Positions 3,560 through 64,000 of a stretch of DNA of 64,000 bases are shown one piece after another; position 1 is the first letter of the stretch; each line of letters begins with the position of its first letter. Under the pieces are notes generated by a model. It saw only the letters and a list, made by a program, of their open reading frames with translations, was not told the origin of the DNA and made no database searches. The translations under genes were made by a program, and so were the position numbers. The stretch covers positions 26,520,546 through 26,584,545 of the forward strand of contig NC_054879.1 in the NCBI RefSeq assembly GCF_018320785.1, read 5' to 3'. This DNA is from Cheilinus undulatus (taxonomy: Eukaryota).

Positions 3560-4843
3560 TTGATCCGTACAGTCCTCCGTGTCTGTAAAGGCTTTTTGAT
3601 CCTGCTGTTTATGATGACTCTGTCTTGCCAATTTTGTTGCCATGATGTTAAAATAAATCCAAACACAGAACCTTGTGTGACCATCACATCTTGTCTGATT
3701 CATTTTTTGATGTGCCAGAAGTCCTCTATTGGTGATTGGTCTGGACTGCAGGCAGGCCAGTTCAGCACCCGGACTCTTCTGGGAAGCCATCCTGTTGTGA
3801 TGGATGTAGTTTAGCATTGTCTTGCTGAAATAAGAAAGGTCTTCCCTGAAAGAGGCATAGTCTGGATGGGAGCATATGTTGCTCAGCATTGATAGTCCCT
3901 TTCAGATGTGTAAGCTGCCCACGCCATAGGCACTAATGCAACCACATCCCAGAGATGCTGGCTTTGGAACTGTGCCAGGATAACAAGTTGGATGGTCCCT
4001 CTCCTCTCTAGTACACAGGACATGGCGCCCATGGTTTCCAAAAGAATTTCAAATTTTATTTCACCTGACTCCACAACAGTTTTTCCATTTTGCCTCAGCC
4101 CATTTCAAACAAGCTCTGACCCAGACAAGACAATGGCTTTTCTGGATCATGTTCACATATGGCTTCTTCTTTTCATGATGCAGCTTTAACTGTCAATTAT
4201 GGATGGCATATTGAACAGTGTCGACATACAGCGATTTCTGTAAGTGCTCCTGAGCCCATGCAGTGATTTTCAGATCAGAATCATGCCTGATTTTAGTGCA
4301 GTGCTGCCTGAGGGCCCCAAGACGACCAGCATCTAATATTGACAATTCGCCCTGCCCCTTGCTCACACAGATTTCTCCTGATTCTCTGAATCTTGGGATG
4401 ATATGTACTGTTGATGTTAGGGTTTTCAAAGTGTTTGCAATTCACCATTGTGGAACATTTTTGTGAAATTGTTCCATATTCTTCAGATGGTGTTTTTGCA
4501 GACTGGTTAACCTCTGCCCATCTTGACTTATGCTCATTTTATACCCACTCATGTTACTGACCTATTGCTAATTAACCTCATTTGTTGCACAGTGCTCCTC
4601 AAGCTGTTCTTCATACCTACTGACTTTACCACTGTTTTATTGCCCTGTCCCTACCTTTTTGAAATTTGTTGCTACTGCCAAATTCAACATGATCTAATAT
4701 TTTTCATGAAATGGTTAAATGTCCGATGTGTTATTTATGTTATATACTGGATAAAATATAGGTTTATGAGATTTGAAAATCATTGCACTGTTTTTATTTA
4801 CATTTTACACGCCGCCCCAACTTTTTTGGAATTTGGGTTGTAA
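3560..4843 (-). mobile_element. Tc1-like DNA transposon, family A copy (internally degraded)
   Basis: Minus-strand transposase fragments include ...ITAWAQEHLQKSL... at 4193-4429. Terminal sequence ccaaaaaagttggggcggcgtgtaaaatg (reverse complement) at 4800-4843 is shared with copies at 30690, 43151, 58738 and 60775. Confidence 0.7.
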
Positions 4844-15879: not shown

Positions 15880-17270
15880 TGTTTTTTAAAACTTGCATTT
15901 TATATTCATATGGAAAAATAAAAAACCAAGAATAAGATATAAGTTGCTTCAGAGCATTAAAGAAAAGGGTGGACTAAATTTACCTAATATTAAAAAATAC
16001 TACTGGGCATCCCAACTAAGAGCACTAAAAGTATGGATTGATAAGGAGCTTGAGACAGGATGGAGGGAAATGGAGCAAAATTCATGCCCTAAAATGCCCC
16101 TAGAGTCTTTACCATTTGTAACAAAGAAAATACAAAATGATTTAAAAATTAAAAATGAATGGATTAAAGGAACATTAAAAATTTGGACAATAATAAAAAG
16201 AAAGCTAAGAATGTCTGATTCAATCTGCAGGGCCACTAAAATAGCATTAAATCCAGACTTTATACCCTCAATGGAAGGAGGATTCTACAAATGGAAAGAG
16301 AAGGGACTGATATACACTGGATAGCTTTTTGAAGGTGAACATATTAAATCTTTTGAACAGTTAAAAAACGAATTTAGCTTAAATGTACAAGATTTTTATA
16401 AATTTTTACAAATTAGAAATTACCTTACTAAACATAAGGAATGGGAGTATATCTGTAAGAAACCAAAATACTGTGAAGAATTATTAATGACAAATTCATG
16501 TAATACTAAAAAGATTATCTCAAAAATGTATAAAGCCCTGCAGGTTGAATCAGAAGACAACAATCTTGATATTAAGGACAAATGGGAGAAAGAGAGAAAT
16601 ATAATAATTTTAGAGGAAAACTGGGAGGAATCATTTAAAGTAGGACAGAAATTATTAAATAGTATTTCATGGTGAGAGTTTGAATGGAAATCAAAAATGC
16701 AATATTTTATTGTTCCAACTGATACATCAAAATACAATGGAAGATCTGACAAATGCTGGAGGGGCTGTGGTCAGACAGGAGACTATGCACATATATTTTG
16801 GGACTGTCCCATAATTAAAGAATACTGGGACAATGTAAAAAGTAAGATTGAAGATATTTGCAAGGAGAAATTGAATTTGGATTTACAATTATTCTTACTA
16901 GGCATTATACCAAAATCTATATCATTAAAAAATAGGAAAATTATTTTAATTCTGAGTACAATAGCAAAAAAAACTATAACTGTTTCCTGGCTAAAACCAC
17001 AGCCTCCCAGTGTGGATTACTGGTGGGAAAGGGTTAATGAAGTGATGGACATGGAAAGAATGACGGCTAGATTGCAGTTTAAATTGAAGAAATTTGAAGA
17101 GTTATGGTCACCTGTAATACAGGAGACAAAAAACTGACATATACCCTACATTACTTATTTATTATTATTATTATTTTTATTTTATTTTATATTATTATTA
17201 TTATTATTATTGTTATTATTTTATTTTATTATTACTATTTTTTTGTGTGTGTGTCTTTTTTTATTGTTTA
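15880..17270 (+). mobile_element. L1-type LINE 3' fragment (ORF2 C-terminus with Cys-rich CWRGCG..HIFWDCP motif) with (ATT)n tail
   Basis: ORFs 15893-16324 and 16697-17137 resemble the L1 ORF2 C-terminus (FIWKNKKPRI..., CWRGCGQTGDYAHIFWDCP). The fragment ends in a microsatellite tail at 17151-17260 and lies in a PARP4 intron. Confidence 0.75.
17151..17260. repeat. (ATT)n/(TTA)n microsatellite (L1 tail)
   Basis: ttattattattattatttttattttattttatattattattattattattattgttattatt... Confidence 0.9.
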
Positions 17271-19689: not shown

Positions 19690-20060
19690 TTTAATCAGCA
19701 TATCCCTTCGTTTTTGCCACTTTTTTTTTTCCAATTTTTTTTTTTTCTGGCTTTTTGCCTTTTTCATGGAGAGAGGCTGTGTATACCTGGGCTGCCCACA
19801 TATATGAGGCTTGACCATATCACAAGGCCATTATGCCCAAACTTTTTTTTGGCACTTTTAACCCATTTTTGCCACTTACTGCCACTTTCAACCCAATTTA
19901 ACCAGTTTTTGCCACTTTAAGCCAATTTTTGCCTCTTTAAATCTGTTTTTGTCACTGCTCTTCAGCTTGAACCCATTTAATCATTTTATGACACTTTAAA
20001 TCCATTTTCACAACTTTTTTTTGCAACTTTTTTTTTTAACCAACTTTATTTTTATTTTCT
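19690..20060. repeat. Second block of the GCCACTTTT/AACCCATTTT minisatellite family
   Basis: ttgccactttttttttttccaa...ttttgccacttactgccactttcaacccaatttaacc... The blocks flank a ~600-bp non-repetitive core at 19105-19690, suggesting one composite element. Confidence 0.7.
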
Positions 20061-23880: not shown

Positions 23881-23884
23881 ATAT

Positions 23885-24470
23885 TCATGCATTCATCTTC
23901 TTCCACTTATCTGGGGCCAGGTCCTTGCTGTAGCAGGCTAAGCAAGTCCACTCAGACAACCCTTTCCCCAGCAACACCTTCCAACTCCTTCTGAGAGATC
24001 CTGAGGCATTCCCAGACCATACAGGATATGTAATCCCTCCAGCGCATTCTGGGTCTCCTTCCAGTTGGACATGTCTAGAATACCTTCACAGGGAGGTGAC
24101 CAGGAGCCATCCTGATCAGATGCCCAAACCACCTCCCCTCCACTGGCTCCTTTTGATGTGAAAGAGCAGCGGCTCTACTCCTAGCTCCCCCCGGATGTCT
24201 GAACTCCTTACTCCATCTCTAAGGCTGAGTCCAGCCACCCTCCAGAGAAAACTCATTTCGGCCGCTTGTATCCTCGATCTCATCCTCCATGTCATCTGCA
24301 AAAAAGCAGAGACAGAGTTCTAAGGTTCCCAAACTGTAAACTCTCCTTCTCCCCCAGCTGCACCTCAAGATCCTGTCCATAAAAATCACAGACAGAATCC
24401 GAGATAAGGGGCTGAGGCAAAAACACATCGGGAACATGTTCAACTTTGTGCTGGGAATGTGAACACAACT
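23885..24470 (-). mobile_element. LINE (non-LTR retrotransposon) 3' fragment: reverse-transcriptase C-terminus plus conserved tail
   Basis: Minus ORFs encode ...FADDMEDEIEDTSG... and VAGLSLRDGVRSSDIRGELGVEPLLFHIKRSQWRW. The 3' terminus ...ccagcaaggacctggccccagataagtgg (reverse complement) at about 23885 belongs to the same family as 56641 and 63917. Confidence 0.75.
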
Positions 24471-30226: not shown

Positions 30227-30689
30227 GTCAGTTTAACCTTTTTCAATGCTACACTGTGAGAAAATGTGAAACTGTCCCACTGTTTAAAGGGAAACTAAAA
30301 ATCAAAGAATTAAGTCAGGTTGCAATAATCAGCAGTTCTTTGTTTCTGTTACATTAACTAAAAGTCTGATAAACTGGCAGCGGACTCGGGCTGCTAATAG
30401 TTCCAAAAGTGTTTATCATTTGCACTAGTGATATTCAAGCAAAATCATGCCAGTGAACTTTTCCTGCTCCACGCAGCTCTTGTTTTGTGTCTGCATCTTC
30501 CTTCTGCACAAATCTGCGTTCTCATGCTAACACAGCACAGTTTCATCCACCTGAAGATGATGAGTTTAAAGAGGAGAAACAGTGTGATGGTTTTTATTTT
30601 GATGCAAGATTTTAATAATATAATATGAATTTCACCATTTAAAATAAAGATTCATCCCTTTATGTAGCCAGCAAGAGCAAGAATAAACC

Positions 30690-31917
30690 TAATTCCAAAA
30701 AAGTTGGCGAACTGTGTAAAACATCTTTAAAAGATGTTTTAATGATTTGCAAATCTGATTAACCCATACTGGATTTACAATAGAACATTAACAACAAATG
30801 TTGAATAATTTTATTATTTCATGAAAAATAGTAGCTGGTTTTGAATTTCATGTCAGCAACACATCTTGAAAATTAGGGACAGGGCAACAAAAGTTTGGAA
30901 AAGTAAAACATCTACAGTCCATAATACCATCAAAATATTCAGAGAATCTGGATAAATCTCTGTGTGCAAGGGTCAAGGCTGAAGGTCAGTATTTGATGCT
31001 TGTGATCTTTGGGCCATCGGGTGGCACTGCATTAAAAAACAGGCCCGATTCTGTCCTGGAAATCACTGCATGAGCTCAGGAACCCATCCAGAAATCACTG
31101 TCGGTCACCACAGTTGGCCATGCCATCCACAAAGGCAAGTTAAACCTGTATCATGCAAAGGAGAAGCCATATGTGAACAGGATCCAGAAATGTGACCGTC
31201 TTCCCTGGGTCAAAGCTCATTTAAAATGAAAAACTGTTCTGTGGCCAGATTAATCAAAGTTTGAAAATTGTTTTGGAAACCACAAATTCAGTGTCCTGCG
31301 GACTAAAGAGGAGACGGACCATCCAGCTTGTTATCCTGTTACAGTTCTAACACTTGCATCTCTGATGGTATGGGGTTGCATTAGCACCTATGGCATGGGT
31401 AGCTTACACATTTGGAAAGGCACTATCAATGCTGAAAAGTAAAGAGAGGTTTGCAACATATGCTCTCATCAATACAATATCATTTCAGGAAAGGCCTTGC
31501 ATATTTAAGCAAGACGATGTTTAACCACATACCACATCCATCACAACAGCATGGCTTCACAGTAGAAGAGTCCAGGTGCTAAACTGACCTGCCTACATTC
31601 CAGAATTTTCTTCAATAGAAAATATTTGAAGCTTCATAAAATAAAAAATTTGACAAAGAAGACTCGTGACGGTTGAGCAGCTTAAATCCTACTTAAGACA
31701 ACAATAGGCCAGCATTTCTCTCCTAAAACTCTAGCAATTAGTCTCTCAAAATGTGCTAATATTTTTTCAAGAAATCCTCAATTGTTTCAGACTAATTATC
31801 TAATATGTTGTTTATGAGCTATTGTAGATAAAATATGGGTTTTTTGAGATTTTTAAATCATTGCTTTCTGCTTTTATTTACATTTTAAACAGAGTCCTTC
31901 TTTTTAAATTGGGGTTA
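30690..31917 (+). mobile_element. Tc1-like family A copy (degraded, + orientation)
   Basis: Left terminus ccaaaaaagttggcgaactgtgtaaaaca. Decayed transposase frames at 31000-31600 include ..MQRRSHM.., ..QLVILLQ.., WYGVALAPMAWVAYTFGKALSM. Right terminus cattttaaacagagtccttctttttaaattggggtt. It lies in the intron between the vWA exons. Confidence 0.65.
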
Positions 31918-32072
31918 CTAAAAAAACCTTCCATGATACATAATACAATACATAATGTATGAAATACATCATTTTTAACATCTACTGTTGATAGTTCAAA
32001 TGAGCGATCATATTCTCAAGGGAAAAGAATATTAAACAATGCTGATTTTTTCTTGTGATTCTTGTCTCCTAG

Positions 32073-43150: not shown

Positions 43151-45597
43151 CTACAACTCCACAAAAGCTTGGGCGCTTTGTAACATGTAATTAAGAACAA
43201 AATGCAATGATTTGCAAATCTCGTAAAACCTACTTTTATTCAAAATAGAACTAAAACAACATATCTGATCTTGAAACTAAGACATTATATCATTTCATGA
43301 AAAATTTAAGCTCATTTGAATTTGATGGCAGCAACACATCTCAGACTGAAAAGTATGGACAGGGCCATGTTAACCGTTGTGTAGCATCCACTCTTAACAA
43401 CTGTCTGTAAATGTCTGGGAAATGAGGAGACCTGTTTTGGGAGAGGAATGTTGTCCCATTCTTGTCTGATGTAGGATTCAAGATGCTCGACAGTTCTGGG
43501 TCTTCTTTGAATGTTTTTTATTTTTTGATCTACCAAATGTTTCTGTTGGTGAAAGGTCTGGACTACAGGAAGGCCAGTTCAGCACTCAGGCTCTTCTACT
43601 TTGAAGCCATGCTGTTGTGATGGATGTGGTATGTGGTTTGGCATTACCTTACCATTTGGCATTGCGAAAATATGCAAGGCATCCCTTAAAGAAACGTTTT
43701 CTGGATTGGGACATATATATGTTGCTCTAAAACCTCTATACTTTCCGCCATTGATAGAACCTCTCCAGATCTGTAAGGTGCCCATAGGCACTAATGCAGC
43801 CCCATACCATCAGAGATGCAGGCTTTTGAAGTGTGCGCTGGATGATCCCTCTCCTCTTTAGTCTGCACAACAGGGTTTCACAGGTTTCCAAAAAGAATTT
43901 TTAATTTGATTAATCTGACCACAGAACAGTTTTTCATTTTATCTCAGTTCATTTTAAATGAGCTTTGGCCCAGAGAAGATTGTGGATCGTGTTTACATAT
44001 GGCTTCTTCTTTGCATGATTAAATTTAACTTGTATTTGTAGATGGGACTGCAAACTGTGCTGACAGACAGAGATTTCTGGAAGTGTTCCTGAGCCCATGC
44101 ACTGATTTCCAGTACAGAATCGCGCCTGTTTTGAATTGCAGTGCTGCCTGTGGGCCCTAAGATCATGAGCATGCCAACCAAACTTCATTCTTTTCCCTTT
44201 CACACAGAGATTTCTCCAGATTCTTTGAATATTTTGATGGTATTATGGACTGTAGATACTGGGATGTTCAAAGTGTGTAATTTTATGTTAAGAAACAATT
44301 TTCTAGAGTTTTTCAACAACTTTTAGACGCAGTTGTTTTTTTGTAAATTGGTAACCCTCTGCCTATCTTTACTTCTGAGAGACTCTGCCTCTCTAAGATG
44401 CTCCTTTTTTACCCTGTCATGTTACTGACCTGTTGCCAATTGACCTTTTTAGGTGTAAAATGCTTCTCCAGCAGTTTTTATTAGTACAATGTAATTTTCA
44501 GCCTTTTGCTGTCCCTACATTTTTTTAGATGAGTTGCTGCCATCAAATTCAAAGTGAGCTAAATTTTTTCATGAAATGGTCAAATGTCACAGTTTCAATA
44601 TATTATATGTTGTTTATGATTTATTGTGAATGAAATATTAGTTTATGAAATCTGCAAATCAATGCATTTGGTTTTTATATACAGTGCTTAACAAATGTAT
44701 TAGACTACCCTAACCCTAACCATGTAAGGTTTATGCCACAGCTGCCCTAAATTAAAAGCATTGGTAATTACTAAAATCATTTTTTATTACTCTGCAATGG
44801 TTAATACACCAATATGTAGAAGCTCTTTAACCCAAATGATATTTTTAATGCTAAAATAAAATATAACTAGAATGGCCGTCTGAGGCGGCAGACCCACGCC
44901 TAAGCAGCGCCACCGAGGAACTCAGCTCCCATTGGTTACTATGATGTTCAAAATTCGAAGTGCGAGAAAAACCAAACGGATGCGCCGATCATCACCAAAA
45001 TTGAATCAGTTCTTCCCTGTCACTATCCCAATATTCCCTGAAAGTTTGGTGAAGATCTGACTTTCCATTCTCGAGTTATCTTGTACACATACAAACAAAC
45101 AAAGAAACGAACAAGCAAAGATACGGAACCCTTTACATAACCCCCTGCCGATTTCATCGGCATGGGTAATAAAATATCACCTAAAATATAATTATTATTG
45201 TTATCCGTGAATTTTCAAATTTACTGATTTACAAAAAAACTGAAAAAATAGTAAAGCACATTAATATTTCTTGATTAATATGTCAAATTATAGTTATTTA
45301 CTTGCATTCCTGAACAGAAAAATGAGTTTTAGTGGTTGAATGTTATGCTTGATTCATTTCTGACTTCTCAGAGAAGCCCAGTGAGCCGGCTCAAATTTGG
45401 GTGAATTCACTTTGAAATTCCTCATTCCTGTTCAAAATGGTAAAACGTGGAGAGCTCACTGAAAATGAAAGAGTCCGCATGAAAGCACTACATGATGCTG
45501 GATGGTCTCTGAGTCAAATATGACAGATGGTCTAATAAATTTGTTAAGCACTGTACATTTTACACAGCACCCAATCATTTTTTAAATTGGGGTTTTT
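43151..45597 (-). mobile_element. Tc1-like family A copy (minus) carrying a nested insertion
   Basis: Left terminus ctacaactccacaaaagcttgggcgctttgtaacatg. Transposase pieces on the minus strand are 43312-43536 (C-terminus ..SYIRQEWDNIP..) and 43949-44203 (N-terminus ..WAKAHLK..). The right terminal repeat resumes at 45555-45597 after an 872-bp insertion. Confidence 0.75.
44682..45553. mobile_element. Nested Tc1/mariner-type non-autonomous element inside the family A terminal repeat
   Basis: 24-bp inverted termini are CAGTGCTTAACAAATGTATTAGAC and GTCTAATAAATTTGTTAAGCACTG, flanked by TA/TA. There is no transposase ORF. It contains ccctaaccctaacc near 44708. Confidence 0.7.
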
Positions 45598-47440: not shown

Positions 47441-48948
47441 AGTCCCATCTGCAACTCAATGAAAATGTCTAAGAAAATCATGCCTGAAGAGGAGATTGGA
47501 GAGTGTGCTGAGTACATGGCTGAGTTTTCTTCAAGTTGGTCTTCTGTAGAAGAGAGTGCTGAAATCATGGAACAGTCTGACCAGGAATTATGCTTCATCT
47601 CTCCTCAACTTGAATTTTTGACCAACCCGACTGAAGTTGAGTTGAGTGATGTATGGGCCGAAACACTTAATCCTCTTCTCGAGAGTCGTAGGCTCCAACA
47701 AGGGTATAGTTCTCCTCTTTACCCCACTGGTCCTCAGGGCATAGCATTTGGTGGTCCTCCAAGTCCTGTCCTAAGTGATCTTCGAGCCAAAGGTGACATA
47801 CCTAGGTCTTCCTCTACTTTGTTTTCAAGCAGGGCACTGGATGGTCCTCCCCCGCCACCTCCTCCTCCTTCTAAATCCACTAAATTTAAGGGCCAAGCAT
47901 TTGGCGTACATACTCCTCCTCCTCCTCCTACTGGTCCTCCAGTCAGATCAATTGATCGTTTTCCTCCACCTCCTCCTCTTTGCGGTCCGCCTCCTCCTCC
48001 TCCTACTGCCGCTGTAACGAAGGGCCCAGCATTTGGCAGACAACCTCTTCCTCCTTCTCCCCCCACTGGTCCTGCAATCAGATCATTTGCTCGTCCACCT
48101 CCTCTTCCTGGAGTTCCTCTCCCTTCCAATGCTCTGCCATTTAGAGCATTTGGCCATCTTCCACCTCCTCAGATTGGGGGTCCTCCCCCTCATTCCCCCT
48201 TCACTGGTCTGTCATTTGCTGGTACTCCTCCTCCCCATCCTCCTTTAGCATTTGGTGGTCCTCTCCCTCCTTTCCTTGATGGTTCATCTCATCCTCACCC
48301 TCTCAGTTTTAAGGCCAACTTTTTTGATAGTCATGAAAGTGCTGGACCAATTATGTTTGGTTCACCCCTCAATCTTTCATATAGATCACTTGCCGTTGAG
48401 GATCCTGAACTTTGCACTGCCAGCTCTGTTATTAAACATGACAAGTCCCCTGCTGCAGAGAAATCTCCAGAAGGTGCTGACATCTTGCTACCAGCTAGTA
48501 ATGAGATTACACCAACACAGGCTGAAAGAAGTCTAAGGAGAAAAATCTCCACTTCTTTAGTTCGTGGAGGCTTGTTCGGTGCAACAGCACCCTTTAGCTT
48601 TGAGAGCAGCAAACCAAGCTATGTAACCCAGCAGAAACAGCAGTCAGGTTTCAGTTTCAGGTGCTCCGAGGTTGAAGCAGACTTGCAGCAAGAAGAACGC
48701 TTCCAACGAGATGAACAAGAACCAAGTATGCGTAAGCTAAAGAAGAAAAGTGCAAAAATGATTGATTTGTGTGCGGAGGAACTTGTAAATGAAAATGAGC
48801 CTTCACCAGAGGAAGATTCATCTGACTCAGAAATAACATATGGATCTAGGGAAGGGTTCGGCATAAGGAGTGGCATAAGGAGTGGCGGCATACGCCGTTC
48901 AACTTTCAAGTCACAGCCACGGAAGCATCTGAGGATTGCACGCTCCGT
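47441..48948 (+). CDS. parp4: PARP4 large exon (~503 codons): acidic N-terminus, polyproline tandem repeats (FH1-like), Ser/Glu-rich C-terminal part
   Basis: Acceptor ttgtAG|AGTCCC sits directly after a (GT)n tract. There is a 1.5-kb open frame (six-frame ORF 47459-48952). Donor tccgt|GTAAGT uses the G of the frame's terminal GTG-TAA, so the stop is spliced out. Ends in phase 2, which the next exon needs. This corresponds to the large proline-rich exon of human PARP4. Confidence 0.82.
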
Positions 48949-49558
48949 GTAAGTCCACTACTTATCTAGACAGTTACTTAAAAATTTTGCAAAGCTTTGG
49001 TAGCCAGAATGACAAAAAGCTAGGTAACCTGAATGTTCATTAAGTGATGGATTCGTCTTTGTGTGTAAGTTTATCCAACAGTGCTTATTAAAGACATTTG
49101 TCAAATGTGAAGATTTTTGTCTGTATGTATTTTAGATTTAAAGGGGACATATTATGCAAAAAACACATTTTCAGGCTTTTCTAGCAAAAAATATGTGCCC
49201 CTGGCCTGTCCACAATCCCCTAAAGTCCCCTCAAGTACCTGATCCTCCTCTCAGCTGGCAGCTGAGAGGAGGATCAGGCGAGCCACAGCCATTTCCTGAG
49301 AGGGGCAGAGTCAGACAGCTCAGTAACATTTAAAGCCACAGACACAGAAACAGCTCATTCTAGGCAGGGCTGAAAAAAAGGGGGGTTTAGACAAAAAAAA
49401 ATCCTTTACTAGAGTGTCTTTTCAGCAACAGACTTCACAGCCATGTTTTTGAGACCTCTGAGACCAATATTAACTTTTCTGAAAAGGGTAAAATATGTCC
49501 CCTTTAAACACATTTTATACTTTCAGGGATATTCATGTAATGTCCTGTCATATTTCAG

Positions 49559-51730: not shown

Positions 51731-54122
51731 GTCTGTTCAAACCTGAAAAAAATGTGTATAAATAGTGTGTCATGATGTTTAATTCCTCACTGAATCTAAA
51801 CAGAATTGTGTCAGCCCCATTTAAGTGGGATTCAGTTAGTTAATGTGGTGTCTGTAGCAGCAAGAAGTTGTTGAAAAATGCTCAATATAATGTTTTTAGA
51901 ATTGAACATAAAGGCTTGAATATTGAGAAGAAAATCTCCCCTGTTAAAGGAAGAACTACAAATACAAGCACAATAATTTTTGTATGTATAGGAAGTCATT
52001 TTTAAACTTGACTTTTGTTAACCCCAAGTTTTCGTGAGAGAAAAAGAAGATTACTGTCAGAACTGTGCAAATACTTTTGCAACCCTCCTTCCTCTACAGC
52101 CACTTGAGGTGATTGCGTTTCCACAAAGATGACCACACCTTACCGACAGTTCTGTCTGTCAAAGGTGGAAACATATGAAATACTTACCATCCACAGTTAT
52201 AATATATAATATAAAGCGCTTTAAAAGCTCAGTTAGAAGGCGGGCTCAAGTCGAGCCAGATTTGCACTCAGACATAATACACATCTTCACTTTCTGATTG
52301 GTTATATACTGTATGTTACATGTGTGGCCAGTTTTGCTGTCAAGAATTGCACAAAATTCCCGGTTGTATTTGTTGTGGTTTAATGATGCTCACTGTCAGA
52401 TTGTATGTGCATTTTTAGGCTTTATTATAAGCATAAATATTAGGTTATATTTATAAAACATGGAATTTCTCTGTTTATACATTGCTTTACTGTATTTTTT
52501 TTAAGCAACATCTACCAGAGACATCAGATGTTAATTATCCACTTGCTTTTATCTGGCATATTTACACTGTCTGGTCCTCTACTAGTATAGCTCATCTGCA
52601 GTCACATGATATTCTTCTGGTGATGATGGGGGAAGTAAATGTAGAACAACAGTCAAGGATCAATGGGAATGGAGGAAAGTTAGTATGTTGAAGCTCTAGG
52701 TGGACCTGTATGCTGCAGTTATCATCAGAACATTTCTACATACATCAGGTATGATCCCTAGACCAGTGTTTCCCAACCATTTTTCCTTGAAGCCCCCCCT
52801 ACATGCACCTAAGAAAAGCAGAGCCCCCCCAGGACCCAAAAGTGAAGAAAAAGTGACACACTGACACCAAAAATCAACAAAGATTTGAATTGTTTCAATG
52901 ATAAAACCCTAAAAAAAGGCCTATGAATGTTTTTATTATCTAAAGACCTTTGCATAAACTACTTACTAACTATTTTATCAAGGTTTTAGTCAATATTTGC
53001 ACATCTATTTTTGGCAGCCTCAAAGCAGACAAAGCCTCACGCCCCCCCTTGAGATCTTTGCCTAGACTTTATAAAAAAATGGGATTTTTCTAATGTGTTA
53101 TCCAATTTACCTGGAGTGGATATGATTAATGTAACAGATGATACCTCTATGATATCTAGCTAGATGAAGGAAGACAAGTCTTCAGCAGTCCCTTTAACAG
53201 CTTTTCTCCCTTGTGTTTCCATAAATACACTTTAAATGGAAACACTGGTATACCATTATGCAAATAAACTTCATGGGGTAAGTGACCGAGTGATGGTTTG
53301 TCCTTCACAAACAAGCTGGTTTAGAATGACAGGAGCTGAGGGAGCCAGTTTCCTTTTTTCCATTTTTGATTTTATTTAATGCACATTAAAAAAAAGTCAA
53401 ACTGAGACTGCATCAAGAGCCATTTGGGAGACAGTAAACTGGCTTTTATTCCAGAGCTGAGCGAAATAATCCAAACCTTTAAAAGAGATTTCCCAGTGTA
53501 GTGAAAGAGGCTTGACAGACATCAGCTTAGAAATGCAAGCCGGATCAGGATTTACTGAACTAAACCAGCCCACTTGGTGGAAACTAACCACACACAGATG
53601 TCTGACACCACTCCTCCAGAAGGTAGATGGAGGCTTTTTTTCCATGTCTGCCACTATTCCTCTGCGAGCTTTTAAAGTTTTTCCTGAATATGTCAATACT
53701 TTGGGGACTCAAAAAATAAGCACAAAGGTTTTTTGTTTTTTTTTTCTAGCATCTTGCTGAGTTACAGAGCCATTAGCAGCCTAGAAACTTTGTTGTTTGG
53801 TAGAGCTTCTCCATGCAAATATTACTTCCTTTCCCACATCTGAGGTTTTTTGCTGGGACATGATGTCATCTGCATATAACCCTTTGTTCAATTATGCTTT
53901 TTCTCTTTTAAATATACAGTATTATTCAACCATTTCAGAACTTAACTGCCATTGTATTTGTGCTATGTAGCCAGCGTTGATGAGTTTTCAAGCAGTTTTT
54001 GTGATTAAAATTTAAAAAATAATAAAGGTATTGATAGTAGAACATTAAAGCTTAAAATATGGGTTCATAAGGGCCCAACTCACCATACTCTTCCATTTTT
54101 GATAACTTCTGTTTCCCTCTAG

Positions 54123-54330
54123 GTCCAAGCGCTGGGAGGCGTTAAAGAAGGCAGTGGACTGGGTTTGCTGGGCTGATCGTCAGTACCCCTGCATCTACAG
54201 CCGGCTGGAGTTTGGTTTGAGCTGGGAATCCTCCACCCGTCAGCTGCTGGGATACGAAGCCCTCCCTCCCTTCTCTCCCCTCACCGGTCTGAACCTGCAG
54301 AAGACCCCTGTCCCTCTGCTTGTCCACTGA
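54123..54330 (+). CDS. parp4: PARP4 terminal coding exon: RSKRWEALKKAVDWVCWADRQYPCIYSRLEFGLSWESSTRQLLGYEALPPFSPLTGLNLQKTPVPLLVH*
   Basis: Acceptor ccctctAG, TGA stop at 54328-54330. Matches human NIPWAFEAIKQASEWVRRTEGQYPSICPRLELGNDWDSATKQLLGLQPISTVSPLHRVL. Confidence 0.87.
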
Positions 54331-56640: not shown

Positions 56641-57570
56641 AAAGTCCATCCATCTATCCATCCATCCATCTTCTTCTGCTTATCCTGGGCTGGGTCGCGG
56701 GGGTAGCAGGTTAAGCAAGTCCACCAAGACCTCTCTTTCCCCAGCGACACTTTCCAAGTCTTTCCGGGGAATACCGAAGCGCTCCCAGACCAGACAGGAT
56801 ATGTAATCCCTCCAGCACATTCAGGGTACCCCGAGGTCTCCTCCCAGACAGACATACCCAGAATACCTCCATGGGGAGGCGACCAGGAGGCATCCTGATC
56901 AGATGCCTGAACCACCTCAACTGGGTCTTTTCAATGCAAAGGAGCAGCAGCTGTACTCTAGCCCCCTCCAGATGTCTGAACACCTCACCCTATCTCTAAG
57001 GCTGAGCCCAGCCACCCTGTGGAGGGAACTCGTTTCGGCTGCCTGAATCCATGATCTCATTCCTTCGGTCATTACCAGGAGTTCATAACCATAGGTGAGG
57101 GTTGGAGGGTAGATCGACTGACAAACTGAGAGCTTTGCTCCTTGGCTCAGCTCCCTCTTCACCACAATGGTCCGGCACAATGCCCGGAGTACTGCTGTGG
57201 CTGCCCCAATCCGCCTTTCAACCTTTTCCCCTCACTCTTGAATAAGACCCCAAGATACCTCAACTCCTTCACCTGAGGCAGACTCATTCCCCTCCCAGAG
57301 AAGGCAATCCATCGTTTTCCTGCAGAGAACCATGCCCTCAGATTTTGGAGGTGTTGACTCTCGTCCTGACCACTTCGCACTCAGCCACAAACCGTCCCAA
57401 TGCCTGCTGGAGGTCCCCAGCTGAGGATGCCAACAGAACCACATTATCTGCAAGAAGCAGAGATGAAATTCTGAGTTCCCTGAACCAGACCCCCCACCCC
57501 CGGCTGTGCCTTGAGATCCTGTCCATGAAAATCACAACCAGAATCGAAGACGAGGGGCAGCCCTGGTGGA
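56641..57570 (-). mobile_element. LINE (non-LTR) 3' fragment: RT C-terminal region plus conserved tail, same family as 23885
   Basis: Minus ORFs encode ...ILVVIFMDRISRHS..LLLADNVVLLASSAGDLQQALGRFVAECE... and VAGLSLRDRVRCSDIWRGL..KTQLRWFRHLIRMPPGRLPMEVF. The 3' end carries (CCAT)n and ...gcttatcctgggctgggtcgcggggg. Confidence 0.8.

Positions 57571-57575: not shown

Positions 57576-57606
<31 letters not shown>
57576..57606. repeat. (CA)n microsatellite
   Basis: acacacacacacacacacacacacacacaca, next to or inside the LINE fragment. Confidence 0.9.
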
Positions 57607-57609
<3 letters not shown>

Positions 57610-58026
57610 CAAGGGGCTTCAAGGACACTCCCTGCAGACAACCAATGTACACCAGTTATTTCTTTATTAACCAGCACATAACAGATAAATGTAACTGATA
57701 CACTTTCTTCCAAAAAGAGAAAACATAGAGTTCTTACAGATCTTTTACATTACAATAATAATGACTTTCATGTAGAGCAGCAATTATATTTTTAATAGCT
57801 GATAAGTTGGCAGCAACACATCTAGAGAGGGCCATGATTACCTCTTTTCTTTTAACAAAAGCCTATAAACAGTGTATATCACCACAACATCACCATGTGT
57901 TTCATGTCAACTGGAAAGTAAGCATAAAGGCTGTGTGTGTCAACATGCCTCAGATGATAACCAGGTGTGGCATATTTCCTGTGGTTTCCTGTCAGGTTCT
58001 GTGGTACATGCTCAGTCATCACCTTA

Positions 58027-58054
<28 letters not shown>
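58027..58054. repeat. poly(T) tract about 110 bp upstream of the lectin ATG
   Basis: A run of 28 T. Confidence 0.9.
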
Positions 58055-58057
<3 letters not shown>

Positions 58058-58161
58058 TCTGAAACTTCTAACTTCCTCATTGGTCAGAAAATAATTCTGA
58101 ACATCAGCATCCACAGTAAATTCAGCAGACAGGACCTTTAAAGAAACAGAAAAAGGCAGCA

Positions 58162-58240
58162 ATGGCAGAAATGCAGGAAATCTACGCCAATATTGAAGAT
58201 GAAATACTTGACTATGGAAAGCCTCGGACCATTCAGACAA
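58162..58240 (+). CDS. Type II C-type lectin (CLEC4/CD209-like) exon 1, cytoplasmic tail: MAEMQEIYANIEDEILDYGKPRTIQT
   Basis: ATG in Kozak context (agcaATGg), donor acaa|GTAAGT, exit phase 1. This is the N-terminus of a four-exon series ending in a C-type lectin domain. Confidence 0.7.
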
Positions 58241-58330
58241 GTAAGTTTGTTCACTTTGACTGAGCTATTCAAGAACAGGTACTACCATTCAGGATTATAA
58301 TCTACCTTAAATGGTTCGGTCTGTGTTCAG

Positions 58331-58432
58331 GTCCTGAGAGCTCACAAAAAACATTTTACGGCCCTATTGCTCTTTTTCTGGGACTGCTAAATGTTCTCCT
58401 GCTGGCTGGGATCATCGTCCTCGGCTTCCTCT
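58331..58432 (+). CDS. C-type lectin exon 2, transmembrane segment: SPESSQKTFYGPIALFLGLLNVLLLAGIIVLGFL
   Basis: Acceptor tgttcAG, donor ctct|GTGAGT, phase 1 in and out. A 23-residue hydrophobic stretch makes a type II signal-anchor. Confidence 0.75.
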
Positions 58433-58737
58433 GTGAGTCAGTTTTACTTACTTTAAACTTTTGCAGGTTGTCAAGTCAAGATTTGCTCAAAAATATTCAC
58501 AGGAGAAGATAATCAAGTGTTCAAATAAAGAAACTAGCAGTGTTTTGATTTCTCAGCTGTTTACATTAGACTCATATAATTTAGTGATTTCTTTTACTTT
58601 CATTCAAAAATAAATCTGTTTTGTTGCAAATGCAAACACTGTGCTGAAAGTATAAATGCTGCTCAGGTTCGTCCACCTCTGCTGCTTATTTCTTGTTATG
58701 CACTGAAGACTGCTAAAAAAAAAGTGTATTCACCACC

Positions 58738-59160
58738 CTAGTTCCAAAAAAGCTGGGGCACTGTGTAGAATGTAAGAAAAACAGAATGAAATGATTTTCA
58801 AATCTAATGTTATCTCATATTAGACTTTGAAAATGAAACATTTTACTATTTCATGGAAAATTTTGATGGCAGCATCACATCTCAAAAAAGTAGGGACAGG
58901 GCCATGTTTACCATTGCGTATCATCTCCTCTTCCTTTAACAGTAGTCTGTAAACGTCTAGGAAATGAGGTGACCGGTTGCTGAGTTTTGGGAGAAAATGT
59001 TGTCCCATTCTTGTCTGATGTAGGATTCTAGCTGCTTCATAGTCCTGGGTCTTCTTTGGCAAATTGTTCTATGGTGGTTTTCTGTTGGTGAAAGGTCTGG
59101 CCTGCCAGCACTCACACAGTGAAGCCATGCTGTTGCGATGGATGCAGTATATGGTTTACA
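58738..59160. mobile_element. Tc1-like family A terminal fragment
   Basis: cctagttccaaaaaagctggggcactgtgtagaatg followed by about 400 bp colinear with the family A terminal regions at 30690 and 43151. No transposase body. Confidence 0.6.
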
Positions 59161-59270
59161 GGGTATATACAGAAAATCTGACATAAGGTTAATACTTTTA
59201 AGGCCCTTTTCAAGACCCTCTTCTTACATTCTAAGACTCTATAACATCTTTAATTTATAATCTACTACAT

Positions 59271-60445
59271 TAACCCTCAGGCATCATAGGGGCATTTTTC
59301 TCCATTTGGCCAAGTTTTTCCTCTTTCTCTGCTCACCATTTTGGCTGTGTTAGTGCATATGGTCTCATTTTTTGCAACAAAGTTTCTTTCTGGTCAAATT
59401 TTTGAATTCTAATTTCAATTGCTCTAACAGGTTAGGGGAACACAGTGAAACAAATTTACTATCCTTTAAAGCCATTAAGGACAAAAATGTCCACTTCCAA
59501 AAAACTGCTGTAAAAACTTAACAGATTCATATTGTTTTCTGCTTTTTTTGCATAAATCTCTTAAAGAACTTCAGCTGTGCTCCAAACTACCAAATATTCA
59601 GTGATTTTGAGGATTTTAACCCTTAAAATGCCAGTTTGATTACTTAAAGTCAATGTTGTTTTTTATGAGAAAAAAAAAGCAAAAAAAAAGGGATATCTTC
59701 CTCAGACCAAATGTTAGATGGCTGGGGCATTATTTCTAAATCCAGCATGGACATGTCAATGATTAGCTAAAATATTGACTTTGATGCATTTTTAGATTTT
59801 GTGTAGCATTCCATTTGAAATTCACTACCCTTTCAAGTCAACATGGACAAAAACAGCAATAAAAATAGTATACATTAATATTTTTTTCTGCTTTATTTTG
59901 GTCGAATCTTTTGATCAACTTCAGTTCTACTTAAAACAATCCATTACTGAATAATTTTCAGGATTTTAACCCTTTAAATACCAGTTTGATCACAGGTGGT
60001 CATATTTTTTCTAAAAAGAACACAAAACAGTAATTATTTTTCAGAAAACTTAGCTGGGGGGTAGGGGGGTGTTTTTTAAATCAGTCCTGGGTGTTTCAAA
60101 CATTAGGCAAAATATTGACTTTGATTCATTATTAGTTTTTATGTAGCATCCGATTCAAAATTTACTACCCTTTCGAGTCACTTGTGGACAACAACATCCA
60201 ATTGACTCCCATTCGACCAACATTTTTTGATCTTAAAGTAATCAAACTGGCATTTAAAGGGTTAAAATCCTCAAAAAGATTGAATGTTTGGTAGTTTTGA
60301 GCACAGCTGAAGTTGTTTCAGAGATGTATGTTAAAAAGCAGAAAAATATGAACCTGTTAAGTTTTTACAGCAGTTTTTTGGAAGTGGACATTTTTGTCCC
60401 TAATGGCTTTAAAGGGTAGTAAATTAAAGAAATGCCTGAGGGTTA
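59271..60445. mobile_element. Foldback-like composite element: ~370-bp inverted arms around a partial direct copy
   Basis: Arm 59271-59650 (taaccctcaggcat...ccctttaaagccattaaggac...) is reverse-complemented at 60100-60445 (...gtccctaatggctttaaagggtag...atgcctgagggtta). The middle, 59780-60010, holds a third partial copy in direct orientation. The same core also occurs at about 5130-5220. Confidence 0.6.
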
Positions 60446-60774
60446 AAAAAACAGACCTATGTAGATTTTTTGTGCTGACAGTAAGACTAGGAAGTGACAA
60501 CAAAGAAAATTCAGGAGGATTTCTTGTTATAGTATGTTAATTAGATTTTTTGGTGGAAGTTTTAGACGAGACTATGAGAAAAAAAAACCTTACATCGGTA
60601 GCGGACATGGAAGGTCCTCATGTATACTTAAGCTGCCTAAAAGTAGTTCTATCAAAATCTATAAGTACCGACAATATTTACAAGCTTTTCACTGCACTTA
60701 AAGTTAAGAAGTAGAACAGCATTTAGGTTTTAGGAACAAAAATATAAGGTATAATTATAATTACATTTTAACTA

Positions 60775-61647
60775 ATGCAGCCCCTTACCATCACAGAAGC
60801 AGAGATGGGATAACAAGCTGGATAGTCCCTCTCCTCTTCAGTCCACAGGCCAAAAAGAAGTTCAAATTTTGATTCATCTGACCACTGAACAGTTTTCCAT
60901 TTTGCCTCAGTCAATTTTCAATGAGCATTGACTCAGAGAAGATGGCAGCATTTCTGGATCATGCTCACATAAACACACACACAAACATGTTCACACAGTT
61001 TGGTAAACTGTGTTGAAAGACAGTGATTTCTGGAAGTGTTCTTGGGCCCATGCAGTGATTTTCCAGTACAGAATCATGCCTGTTTTAATGCAGTGCCACC
61101 TGAGCGCCCGAAAATCACAAGCATCTGACCTTTGGCCTTCTCCTTGCTGCACACAGATCTATCCAGATTCTCTGAATCTTTTGATGATATTATGGACTGT
61201 TAATTATTAGGTATTCAAAGTCTTCTCAATTTATATTGAGAAACATTTTTCTGTTATTGTTCCACAGTTTTTAGATGCAGTTTTTTTGCAGATGGGTGAG
61301 CCACTGCCCATCTTTACTTCTGAGTGACTCTGCCTCTAAATGCTCCTTTTATACCTTATAACCTAATTAGTTGCAAAATGCTTATCCAGCTGTTATTCAT
61401 GAGTACTGCTCACTCTTCCATCCTTCTCTTGTCCTGTCCTTACTATTTTGAGATGTATTGCTACCATCAAATTCAAATTGAGCTAGTATTTTTCATGAAC
61501 TGTTAAATGTCTCAGTTTTAACATCTGATTGGTTGTTTATGTTTCATTGTGGTTAAAATACTGGTTAATTAGATTTGCAAATGCAATGATTTGTTTATAT
61601 TTACATTCTGCACAGAGCCCCAATATTTTTGGAAATGGGGTTGCTCT
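60775..61647 (-). mobile_element. Tc1-like family A copy (5'-truncated)
   Basis: Colinear with 43800-44650, including minus ORF-like ..AQEH.. at 61010-61210. Right terminus cattctgcacagagccccaatatttttggaaatggggttg. Confidence 0.65.
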
Positions 61648-62104
61648 AAAGATGTGATCACTGACCAGTGAACCAACATTTTATTTTTTAAGATACATTT
61701 TTTTGCAGTGTAAATCAGGAAGGGCTCTCTTAACAGCCCGTCTCCCTCTTTGTGTAAAATGTATCCATGAAGCCAAAGTGATGGTTATGTTTCAGTAAAT
61801 ACACCGCATAGGGAACAGGGTTTTTAAGGAACTTGATTCAGAGTAAGAAATTAGAAGCAGAGAAGTCAGAGGTGTGCATCATCTGTCATTATTGTTTTGA
61901 CTGAGAGCCCCCTGATGGTGGAAGTACATATTGTGAATATAAACTTCCACAGTTTAAGTGATGTTAAAAATGCTGTACAAGCATTTTTAACATTTTACCC
62001 TAGCCAGGAAAAGTGTTGAAAATATTTAGACTTGAAGAAACATAACGTAAGATGCACGCAGTTCTTTATTGTTAATAAAACATTTTTTCTTTGAATTATT
62101 TCAG

Positions 62105-62278
62105 ACTCAGCTCGTCATTCATCTGCAGAGCTCTCCACCATCAAAGCCAATCTAACCGACCGCCTCCGGGCCACAGATCAGCAGCTGTCCTTACTGACTG
62201 AACAGAGGGACCTTCTGAATGTCAGCCTCACCAACACGAGGAGAGAGATGGAGAAGCTTCAGAGTTTGTCCAAACAGA
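62105..62278 (+). CDS. C-type lectin exon 3, coiled-coil neck: YSARHSSAELSTIKANLTDRLRATDQQLSLLTEQRDLLNVSLTNTRREMEKLQSLSKQ
   Basis: Acceptor tatttcAG, donor caga|GTGAGT, phase 1/1. Heptad-like leucine spacing and N-glycosylation sequons (NLT, NVS) are typical of CD209/CLEC4 necks. Confidence 0.7.
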
Positions 62279-62839
62279 GTGAGTTTTCTGCTGACCACAG
62301 TGTCATTATTCAGAACATAGGCAATTTTACATTTAAACACCAACAGAACATTTTAGAAGGCTTAGCTTTCCCAAGTCGTATGCACCCGCCATCACTGGGT
62401 GGGCATACAGTCCAGAGCCCTGTTTGGGACTCTTTTCTTAATCCCACTGGATTTCTGACCATAACCGCCCATTCCTACAGTGCAAGCTTTCCACTCCCAT
62501 CTGCACCCACAACAGGTGTGTCATATTCCACCCGCATCCCACATGGATTCTGACAATCCAGGTTAACTATCACACAAAATGTGTTTAGCTTAAGGCAATA
62601 TTGATATGTTCTCTTAAGCACTACCCTTAAGTTTTCTCTCTGAATGAAGGAAACCCGAAGAAAACAACCACAATCCTTGTCATGTGTAACGGCAGGCTCG
62701 CCAAAAGTTTAAGCTGGGCCCCTGAAATACTCAGAGAATCCCCAGTTTTGTTCTTGTATAGTGCCTAAGCATTCCCTCATTTTGGAGGTGAAAAGTGTGT
62801 CAGACTATTAGCGGGCTCTGATGTTGGAATTGTTTATTT

Positions 62840-63260
62840 GTGGTACTTTTTAACCCATTTCACCACTTTTTCCATTCATTATTGCCACTTGGCCACTTTC
62901 AACCCATTTTTGCACATTTTACCCACTTTTGCTACTTATTTTGAATTTTTCACAAGTTTTTGCCTGTTTATGCCACTTTTATCATTGTCCCTGTATGCCA
63001 ATTAATGTCTTTTTGTCTGCTTTTTACCCATTTTGCCACTATTTAACAATTTGCCCTCTTTTTCTATTGGTTTTTGTTGCCACTTTATGCCCATGTATGC
63101 CACCATATGACCTTTTTGCCACTTTTGCCCATTTTGCAACATCTTTTTGCCACTCTTGCATATTTTAGCGGCCTTTCGTGTTTTTTTTTTCCATTTTTGT
63201 CACTTTTCACCCATTTTCACCTTCTTTTCTTGCTGCTTTTTTGCCTGTAAATGCCATTTT
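62840..63260. repeat. Third locus of the GCCACTTTT/ACCCATTTT minisatellite family (lectin gene intron)
   Basis: ttaacccatttcaccactttttccattcattattgccacttggccactttcaacccatttttgcacattttacccacttttgc... Confidence 0.75.
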
Positions 63261-63722
63261 TTTGTTGATGTTTTTTGTTTTCTGTACATTATTGACCCTA
63301 ACACATTGTGAATACATTAAACTGTCTATACTTTAAAAGGCTTACATCCTGGAGGCAGTATAAAGAAAGAAATTCTCCACTACTGCAGATATGTATGACA
63401 GTATAAGAGTCCAAAGAAACAAAAACATACAGTATTAATTAATATTTGTTTTTCTGTAGTTGTCAGGTGATATAAACATGTTGTTTTGAACAGATTGCCA
63501 TGTAGTCAGCCTTTTTTGCCGTTCAAGTCTCCATGTTGTTGCTTGACTAAAAGCTTTGTATCAGACTCCAAGTGAAATAAAAGCCTAACAATCCTGTTTA
63601 CACATCTATAAAACCCAGATCCTAGATCGAATTAGATGTTCAGGATGGTCTTGGACACAATTTTTTGTGAGTGTTTTCTTCTTTTCTGCTCTGTAATGTT
63701 ATTTTTTCATCATGTTTCACAG

Positions 63723-63865
63723 AGAAAACTTGCCCTGCAGGATGGGTGATGTTCCAGTGTTCCTGTTATCTCTTTTCAACACAAAAAACCTCTTGGGACA
63801 GAAGCAGGCGAGACTGCAGAAACAGAGACGCAGATCTTGTGGTCATTGACAGTTCTGAGGAACAG
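63723..63865 (+). CDS. C-type lectin exon 4, first exon of the C-type lectin domain (CTLD): KKTCPAGWVMFQCSCYLFSTQKTSWDRSRRDCRNRDADLVVIDSSEEQ
   Basis: Acceptor tttcacAG, donor cag|GTAATG. This is the canonical CTLD opening CPxGW...CY.FS....W..S...C...A.LVVI.S.EEQ. The gene continues past the window end. Confidence 0.85.
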
Positions 63866-63916
63866 GTAATGTGTTTTTTGTGGAGTTTTCCTCATCAAAA
63901 TCACAGTTTATAGCCA

Positions 63917-64000
63917 TCCATCCACCTATTTAAGTCCACTTATAGATTCATTCATGACAGGCTAAGCAGGTCAGCCCAGGCCTTCCTCTCCCAAGAAGTG
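63917..64000 (-). mobile_element. Start of another LINE 3' tail (same family as 23885 and 56641), truncated by window end
   Basis: ccatccatccacc...cattcatgacaggctaagcaggtcagcccaggccttcctctccc parallels the termini at 23885 and 56641. Confidence 0.55.

Follow-up and report, generated by a model that had tools for sequence, protein, structure and literature searches.

The lectin gene downstream of PARP4

The window analysed here, a stretch of 64,000 nucleotides (nt) of the forward strand of contig NC_054879.1 from the wrasse Cheilinus undulatus (NCBI RefSeq assembly GCF_018320785.1, positions 26,520,546 to 26,584,545; all positions below are counted from its first letter), carries the PARP4 gene and, close to its end, part of a gene coding for a C-type lectin. 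The lectin region consists of the first four of the six coding exons of an intact, annotated type II single-pass receptor belonging to the group II C-type lectins. The cytoplasmic tail, the helical neck and, between them, the transmembrane anchor occupy one exon each, and the long-form C-type lectin-like domain (CTLD) takes up the three exons that follow. The exons located in the window are as follows:

58162-58240 (79 nt), forward strand: coding exon 1, cytoplasmic tail MAEMQEIYANIEDEILDYGKPRTIQT, with an ATG start preceded by in-frame stops, a GTAAGT donor and an I-Y-x-N core (Y8/N10).
58331-58432 (102 nt, phase 1 to 1), forward strand: coding exon 2, juxtamembrane region and single uncharged transmembrane signal-anchor, peptide SPESSQKTFYGPIALFLGLLNVLLLAGIIVLGFL, delimited by its splice sites.
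62105-62278 (174 nt, phase 1 to 1), forward strand: coding exon 3, helical neck (YSARH...SLSKQK), with a heptad pattern and the sequons N76 (NLT) and N99 (NVS).
63723-63865 (143 nt, phase 1 to 0), forward strand: coding exon 4, first of the three CTLD exons (KTCPAGW...DSSEEQ), with a match to CLEC4C (2.5e-9) and further matches to Mincle, DC-SIGN and others.

Across these exons all acceptors are AG and all donors GT, and the joined sequence (498 nt, 166 codons) keeps an open frame whose translation reproduces exactly the peptides that a first-pass annotation, made from the letters of the DNA, had placed at the same positions. A search of 5.8 billion proteins with the 166-residue product gave 154 matches, all of them fish type II lectins, with E-values down to 5e-70. 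Completed with the 84 C-terminal residues of isoform X2 (XP_041662855.1), the product is identical to the 250-residue RefSeq protein XP_041662854.1 of Cheilinus undulatus, named "CD209 antigen-like protein C isoform X1". The Pfam domain PF00059 (Lectin_C) covers residues 140-250 of the full product with 71.8 bits (cut-off 22.6, E=9.3e-20), which, together with the preceding matches, bears out the assignment to the type II C-type lectins of the CLEC4/CD209-like group. The window-encoded part alone reaches 16.3 bits and falls under the cut-off because two of the three CTLD exons are located outside the window. Exon 5, of 104 nt, and exon 6, of 151 nt, are located past base 64000, and the 84 residues plus a stop codon require 255 nt, which equals the sum of both. 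The continuation of the CTLD, seen in the RefSeq protein, and the lectin-family matches of the peptide, on which the first-pass annotation had staked its reading, were thus both found. In this respect the gene is ordinary and already known, its exact protein being present in RefSeq.

The loci used for comparison were seven from other fishes, four of them labrid. In the four labrid homologues an exact splice-model search recovered six exons each with intron phases 1,1,1,0,2, including short exons that tblastn had missed; exon sizes are 61-70 nt for the tail, 102 nt for the transmembrane segment, 141-168 nt for the neck and 143, 104 and 136-157 nt for the CTLD. The phases in the Cheilinus gene are 1 for introns 1-3, 0 for intron 4 and 2 for intron 5, the last one being taken from the homologues. 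The idea that all exons are in phase 1 consequently holds for introns 1-3 and fails for the end of exon 4 and for the last intron.

The best match of the protein search was isoform X2, in which exons 1, 3 and 4 are identical and which reaches an identity of only 79% because the 34 residues of exon 2 are missing. This isoform skips exactly the symmetric 102-nt transmembrane exon. Such skipping would give a lectin deprived of both signal-anchor and signal peptide, either a real product or splicing noise. Splice isoforms of DC-SIGN lacking the transmembrane segment were reportedly described by Mummidi et al. in 2001.

Architecture and fold of the receptor

The organization of the protein is that of a group II type II receptor, comprising a tail, a single signal-anchor, a neck and one C-terminal carbohydrate-recognition domain (CRD) spread over three exons. 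The transmembrane segment expected in exon 2 is the only hydrophobic segment and extends over residues 39-57, with a Kyte-Doolittle 19-residue maximum of 2.86 and no charge. A charged residue is similarly lacking from the transmembrane segment of 109 of the 111 homologues, which argues against coupling to FcRgamma or DAP12. The AlphaFold2 model (mean predicted local distance difference test score, pLDDT, of 84) consists of a disordered tail (residues 1-35), a continuous helix (37-117) comprising the membrane span and the neck, and a CTLD with a pLDDT >90.

The neck, encoded by one 58-residue exon in which Tandem Repeats Finder detected no array, agrees with the coiled coil bearing N-glycosylation sequons that the first-pass annotation had proposed. 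The fraction of L/I/V/M residues at the heptad positions a and d amounts to 0.53, compared with 0.36 +/- 0.05 in shuffled sequences (P=0.013), the AlphaFold2 helix runs through the neck, and two N-glycosylation sequons, N76 and N99, occur there in addition to a third one at N186. The neck would probably oligomerise the receptor.

The CTLD contains the six cysteines of the long form (122, 133, 150, 222, 240 and 248) and a WIGL motif at 178-181. A seventh cysteine of the family, C131 (63757-63759), occurs beyond these six in a C-x-C arrangement in the first beta strand (FQCSCY) and may be either unpaired or engaged in an interchain bond. With Foldseek, the CRD superposed on those of Mincle, MGL, DC-SIGN and ASGR1 with template modelling scores (TM-scores) of 0.84-0.90, root-mean-square deviations (rmsd) of 1.4-2.3 A and 38-44% identity, being equally near to Mincle (TM-score 0.88-0.90), MGL, DC-SIGN(R), SRCL and ASGR1. 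In a sequence search of single-CRD chains, MGL came first (2.9e-28), followed by Mincle (4.7e-27), DC-SIGN (1.3e-26) and ASGR1 (5.6e-24).

The predicted sugar-binding site

All residues of Ca2+ site 2, namely Q207-P-D209, E219/E220 and W235-N-D237, are present and occupy the same alignment columns as in MGL and ASGR1. The choice between EPN and QPD, which had been left to the downstream exons, thus falls on QPD (207-209), accompanied by WND (235-237). QPD prevails among the homologues as well (95 of 121), EPN being found in 10. The sugar-loop half of the CRD aligned best to MGL and ASGR1 (7e-10), along the pattern WKWxDGT...GQPD..GH..G.EDCAHF...WND..C...W.CE. According to a published rule, EPN directs the binding of mannose and QPD that of galactose (PMC11084180, PMC7080814). 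The CRD would accordingly bind sugar of the galactose type through the conserved Ca2+ site, in a manner closest to that of MGL and ASGR1.

With respect to overall structure, MGL (CLEC10A) and the asialoglycoprotein receptor (ASGPR) subunits ASGR1/2 share with the wrasse protein the type II topology, a neck that is helical and a CRD of the long form containing QPD...EDCAHF...WND (41-44% identity, TM-score ~0.86). They differ by the absence of both the I-Y-x-N tail motif and the extra C131, and by the galactose-stacking Trp of their QPDDW motif, which is replaced by Gly in the wrasse protein (QPDNGGG). The Pfam stalk domain PF03954 (Lectin_N) scored under threshold in the wrasse protein (16.5 bits for a cut-off of 28.3, E=0.0077). 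As a result of the replacement of the stacking Trp, QPD alone may confer a weak or different specificity. The MGL/ASGPR pattern is only partly present, with the QPD and not the stacking Trp, and galactose-type binding is a best guess whose fine details are uncertain.

The cytoplasmic tail and its tyrosine motif

The first-pass annotation had pointed out in the tail a tyrosine-based motif, YANI, followed by an acidic cluster, EDE, both taken for sorting signals. The two motifs occur there, as residues 8-11 and 12-14, respectively. However, the EDE run, like a five-residue insertion, is peculiar to the Cheilinus gene and is not conserved in the homologues, and the Asn at Y+2 is more conserved than the hydrophobic residue at Y+3. 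Alignment of 60 homologues showed no variation at N10 and at least 90% conservation at both I7 and Y8. The composition of 111 homologous tails around the Tyr is as follows:

Y-3: E/D in 102 tails.
Y-2: E/D in 99 tails.
Y-1: I in 97 tails.
Y+2: N in 106 tails.
Y+3: V in 66, I in 15, A in 12, M in 3 and T in 3 tails, the rest being other residues.
Y+4: E/D in 86 tails.

The conserved, family-wide element of the tail can thus be written (E/D)(E/D)-I-Y-x-N-(V/I)-(E/D), and is located 4-8 residues from the N-terminus.

In a YxxPhi sorting signal, Y+3 is constrained and Y+2 is free. Since Y+2 is more constrained than Y+3, the fish tails agree less well with a plain YxxPhi than with a Src-type substrate combined with a binding site for the SH2 domain of Grb2, and point to such phosphotyrosine docking at least as strongly as to AP-2 sorting. 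The sequence recognized by the Grb2 SH2 domain is pY-x-N, in which pY is phosphotyrosine, with pYVNV and pYVNI as high-affinity ligands (PMC9279350, PMC6435016, PMC2709368). Judged by its residues, the stretch Y8-A-N10-I11 complies with this rule, under which a hydrophobic residue is preferred at +3. Concerning the acidic side of the Tyr, AEEEIY(G/A)EF peptides serve as c-Src substrates (PMC7298416). In the proposed mechanism, the tail Tyr would be phosphorylated by a Src-family kinase and would then recruit Grb2-type SH2 adaptors, and YANI may also serve, as a YxxPhi, for AP-2-mediated uptake alongside signalling.

Other type II lectin-family receptors have been tied to Grb2. Prolectin (CLEC17A) possesses YxNx-type SH2-binding sites and co-purifies with Grb2 (PMC2709368), and an interaction with Grb2 is reported for the ITIM2 motif (ITIM, immunoreceptor tyrosine-based inhibitory motif) of avian CD72 (bioRxiv 10.1101/180158). 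The pY-x-N rule is similarly obeyed by the fish consensus EEIY(A/V)NV, but the analogy is one of mechanism, with no specific relationship seen between the tail sequences. In a literature search, the motif strings occurred in no open-access paper text, and no description of a tail so coupled to Src kinases and Grb2 came up for the mammalian ASGPR, MGL, CLEC4 or CD209 receptors. A profile of the tail and transmembrane segment, run against the 5.8-billion-protein set with a candidate filter that became saturated, retrieved 10 short percomorph fragments, a result uninformative on the wider spread of the motif.

Several other tail signals were considered. An ITIM was rejected, Y-2 being Glu instead of I/V/L/S, as was an ITAM (immunoreceptor tyrosine-based activation motif), the second Tyr sitting in YGKP. 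A motif scan found neither LL nor [DE]xxxL[LI] in the tail, and a di-leucine signal was discarded for want of LL. The hemITAM (a half ITAM) pattern of Dectin-1, CLEC-2 and CLEC9A, in which a single YxxL follows an acidic stretch close to the N-terminus, is approached by E-x-x-E-I-Y-A-N-I, i.e., acidic residues followed by YxxI. Y+3 is mostly V and never predominantly L in the family, and the Asn found across the family at Y+2 is not a hemITAM feature. A literature search on hemITAM motifs in teleost lectins returned nothing relevant.

It could be that the element (E/D)(E/D)-I-Y-x-N-(V/I)-(E/D), nearly invariant in this percomorph lectin family, forms a dedicated Src-kinase/Grb2-SH2 module linking a galactose-type group II lectin directly to Ras and the mitogen-activated protein kinases (MAPK), without any ITAM adaptor, in cells of the myeloid lineage where a conserved PU-box would drive expression. 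This more ambitious proposal is put forward tentatively, the odds being somewhat against it. A rival to the favoured account of the gene, doubtful yet to be taken seriously, retains the lectin as described and regards the Tyr motif as an AP-2 YxxPhi internalisation signal only, comparable to that of ASGPR, devoid of any phosphotyrosine signalling. Recycling endocytic receptors are numerous among the group II lectins, the tail of ASGPR likewise contains a tyrosine-based motif, YANI fits YxxPhi, and Y+3 is V, I or M in 84 of the 111 homologues. However, the position left free in YxxPhi is precisely the one occupied by Asn in 106 of the 111 tails, while about one quarter of them have A, T, D, G or E at Y+3, the supposedly critical position. 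The short distance of the motif from the N-terminus also speaks against an exclusive AP-2 signal, as does the conservation of the acidic E-E-I before the Tyr, which recalls the Src substrate peptides (PMC7298416).

Comparison with DC-SIGN and Mincle

It is improbable that the gene represents a true orthologue of DC-SIGN/CD209, i.e., a mannose/fucose-binding endocytic receptor equipped with DC-SIGN-type sorting signals. The wrasse protein resembles DC-SIGN and DC-SIGNR (CD209/CLEC4M) by its type II group II organization, its three-exon CRD (E ~1e-26, 38-43% identity, TM-score ~0.85), the YxxPhi followed by an acidic run in its tail, and its NCBI name. However, DC-SIGN possesses an EPN motif and a neck built up from 23-residue tandem repeats, whereas the wrasse gene displays QPD, a sugar loop best aligned to MGL and ASGR1, a single 58-residue neck exon free of such repeats and no di-leucine; the acidic run is not shared by its homologues, and Mincle, MGL and ASGR1 score equal to or above DC-SIGN. 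The gene also lies next to PARP4, a neighbour that human CD209 is not known to have, the loci compared here being those of fishes. Finally, "CD209-like" is an automatic Gnomon label and not a tested orthology, and labels of this kind have proved misleading in fish (PMC11929736). The qualification "DC-SIGN-style" given to the tail by the first-pass annotation has therefore to be abandoned.

Even less credit can be given to a Mincle/Dectin-2-type activating receptor working through an ITAM adaptor, FcRgamma or DAP12. Such receptors pair with FcRgamma through a charged (Arg/Lys) residue of the transmembrane region. Mincle (CLEC4E) CRDs are the top structural matches (TM-score 0.88-0.90, rmsd 1.4-1.6 A, 41% identity), the label "CLEC4E-like" is attached to several homologues, and a genuine fish Mincle exists (PMC11929736). 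However, Mincle has EPN, and the fish Mincle a short, motif-free intracellular region and an FcRgamma-dependent surface expression (PMC11929736), in contrast to the QPD, the conserved Tyr motif in the tail and the uncharged transmembrane segment of the wrasse protein and its homologues.

The promoter region

Upstream of the lectin ATG, the following features were recognized:

57976-57991, forward strand: TTCCTG doublet, with copies at 57976 and 57986 (-186 and -176 from the ATG), not conserved.
58027-58054, forward strand: tract of 28 T separating the doublet from the conserved box, species-specific, the other loci having unique sequence instead.
58071-58078, forward strand: ACTTCCTC (reverse complement GAGGAAGT), an ETS/PU-box core at -91 from the ATG, conserved in position in related fish loci.

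The TTCCTG doublet, in which the first-pass annotation saw ETS/PU.1-like motifs in keeping with myeloid expression, has no second example in the window, against an expectation of 0.58 per 64 kb. It is present, but at -186/-176 instead of about -150, and has no counterpart in the aligned region of the seven related loci. The idea of an ETS/PU.1 control survives through another element, the ACTTCCTC box, whose eight letters recur unchanged between -94 and -113 in Labrus, Halichoeres, Micropterus and Chaetodon and as one-base variants in Notolabrus and Seriola, with poorly conserved flanks. The occurrence of the GAGGAAGT box ~90-115 nt upstream of the ATG suggests an ETS/PU.1-driven, probably myeloid, expression. 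A GAAAC sequence lies at 58061-58065, 10 nt upstream of the box. Four of the seven other loci (Labrus, Notolabrus, Chaetodon and, displaced, Halichoeres) similarly carry a GAAAC ~10 nt before theirs. A composite ETS-IRF element was rejected, the orientation and spacing of the GAAAC half-site being wrong for the canonical GGAAnnGAAA.

The PARP4 neighbourhood and the lectin paralogues

The tail-to-head arrangement of the lectin with PARP4, noticed from the outset, is confirmed by the PARP, VIT and VWA exons located upstream on the same strand and by a match to human PARP4 (E=2.8e-78) in two stretches that take in the C-terminus. The feature closest to the lectin is:

54106-54330, forward strand: last coding exon of PARP4, seen as an open reading frame (ORF); the coding sequence ends ~3.8 kb before the lectin ATG.

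The PARP4 gene (12200-54330, forward strand) fills most of the window, with the PARP catalytic exons at ~24.6-25.5 kb, the VIT exons at 25.7-27.4 kb, the VWA exons at 30.0-34.7 kb and those coding for the C-terminus at 49.9-54.3 kb. A 503-codon open stretch of PARP4 (47441-48949), which contains a proline-rich low-complexity run, had no Pfam match.

The lectin is the first gene after PARP4, and Halichoeres and Chaetodon likewise have a lectin gene behind PARP4, with both genes on one strand. All seven related loci hold more than one Lectin_C gene, with further copies on both strands. The 49-Mb chromosome that bears the Cheilinus gene has at least four further paralogues, with identities of 67-69% to the PARP4-adjacent lectin. 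The PARP4-adjacent lectins of other species are less similar to it (57-61% identity) than these paralogues, which suggests lineage-specific duplication or gene conversion.

Transposons and repeats in the window

The transposon-derived sequences around and inside the lectin gene are:

56645-57560, reverse strand: antisense fragment of a long interspersed nuclear element (LINE) in the PARP4-lectin spacer, 77% identical to 23882-24283, with an RVT_1 match (E=2.1e-7).
58433-62104 (3.7 kb), forward strand: lectin intron 2, mostly transposon debris, with self-BLAST matches to 3.9-4.8, 30.7-31.9 and 43.1-44.7 kb.
63911-64000, reverse strand: 3' tail of an antisense retrotransposon without long terminal repeats (non-LTR) in lectin intron 4, running off the window and alignable with the beginning of each of the copies at 56645 and 23885.

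The LINE tail announced after the first CTLD exon is thus real; it starts 46 nt after exon 4 and aligns to the two other antisense copies with a score of 53, compared with 24 +/- 4.5 for shuffled sequences (z ~6). Altogether, three antisense copies of one non-LTR family occur in the window (23882-24412, 56645-57560 and 63911-64000), the first of which ends ~240 nt before a PARP4 catalytic exon. The spacer fragment is followed by (AC)16 at 57576-57607 and then by the 28-T tract.

Intron 2 contains an inverted repeat of ~200 nt (59453-59653 / 60227-60425, 90.6% identity), which, once transcribed, could fold the pre-mRNA into a long hairpin and probably represents an insertion resembling a miniature inverted-repeat transposable element (MITE); its spacer is partly repeated, 59500-59855 being similar to 59849-60196. 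Fragments that are ~70% identical are dispersed in intron 2 (58743-59157 and 60771-61645) and in PARP4 introns (3978-4840, 30688-31919 and 43158-44683). By eye they look like Tc1/mariner-type elements, and Pfam found no transposase domain in the fragment tested. In intron 3, a T-rich region (62850-63260) holds many loose GCCACTTTT / CCCATTTT units, with similar sequence at 19847-19929; Tandem Repeats Finder reported only a 20-nt array there (63078-63132). Another block, at 15890-17134 on the forward strand, is AT-rich (GC content 0.31-0.33) with strong positive GC and AT skew, and contains three consecutive ORFs of 144, 116 and 153 residues that resemble by eye the C-terminal part of an L1-type ORF2 and in which Pfam found nothing. 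Over the full 64,000 nt, neither Rfam nor the tRNA scan gave any match.

That the lectin gene would be a decaying, non-functional tandem duplicate or a mis-assembled gene model, as its transposon-filled introns, the LINE tail next to exon 4, the lineage-specific insertion in the tail and the 28-T tract in the promoter might evoke, is hardly credible in front of open frames and canonical splice sites in all exons, nearly invariant family residues (Cys, WIGL, QPD, WND, Y8 and N10) kept in place, exon lengths of 102 and 143 nt shared with the homologues, two isoforms modelled in RefSeq and a conserved promoter box.

Weight of the interpretation

Taken as a whole, the favoured account, namely an annotated galactose-type group II lectin receptor together with the mechanism proposed for it, is given a probability of roughly 0.88. 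The CTLD, the residues of the Ca2+ site and the type II architecture with a three-exon CRD were all recovered, whereas the distinguishing features of DC-SIGN proper and of a Mincle-type receptor were not. Several points weigh against this account. The YANI motif also fits YxxPhi and a loose hemITAM pattern, which leaves the role of the tail ambiguous, and the stacking Trp of the galactose-binding receptors is a Gly. The conserved promoter box could fall in the 5' untranslated region, and exons 5 and 6 are known only through the RefSeq protein and not as DNA. Finally, what is proposed on the specificity for sugars, the oligomeric state, phosphorylation, the binding of Grb2, endocytosis and the expression pattern is all read from the sequence.

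Significance for fish lectins

Since RefSeq already contains the gene under the same family label, the locus has little meaning beyond annotation. The receptor would work in the manner of the endocytic or signalling lectin receptors of group II, and studies of similar fish lectins have treated them as pattern-recognition receptors (PMC11084180, PMC7080814). The name "CD209-like" hides a QPD-containing sugar site that resembles those of MGL and ASGPR. The position next to PARP4, shared by fishes from two families, the Labridae and the Chaetodontidae, can serve to anchor orthology amid messy automatic names. The I-Y-x-N motif of the tail and the GAGGAAGT box of the promoter, which are only mildly new points, offer testable hypotheses on the signalling that these fish receptors may perform and on the cell types in which they would be expressed.

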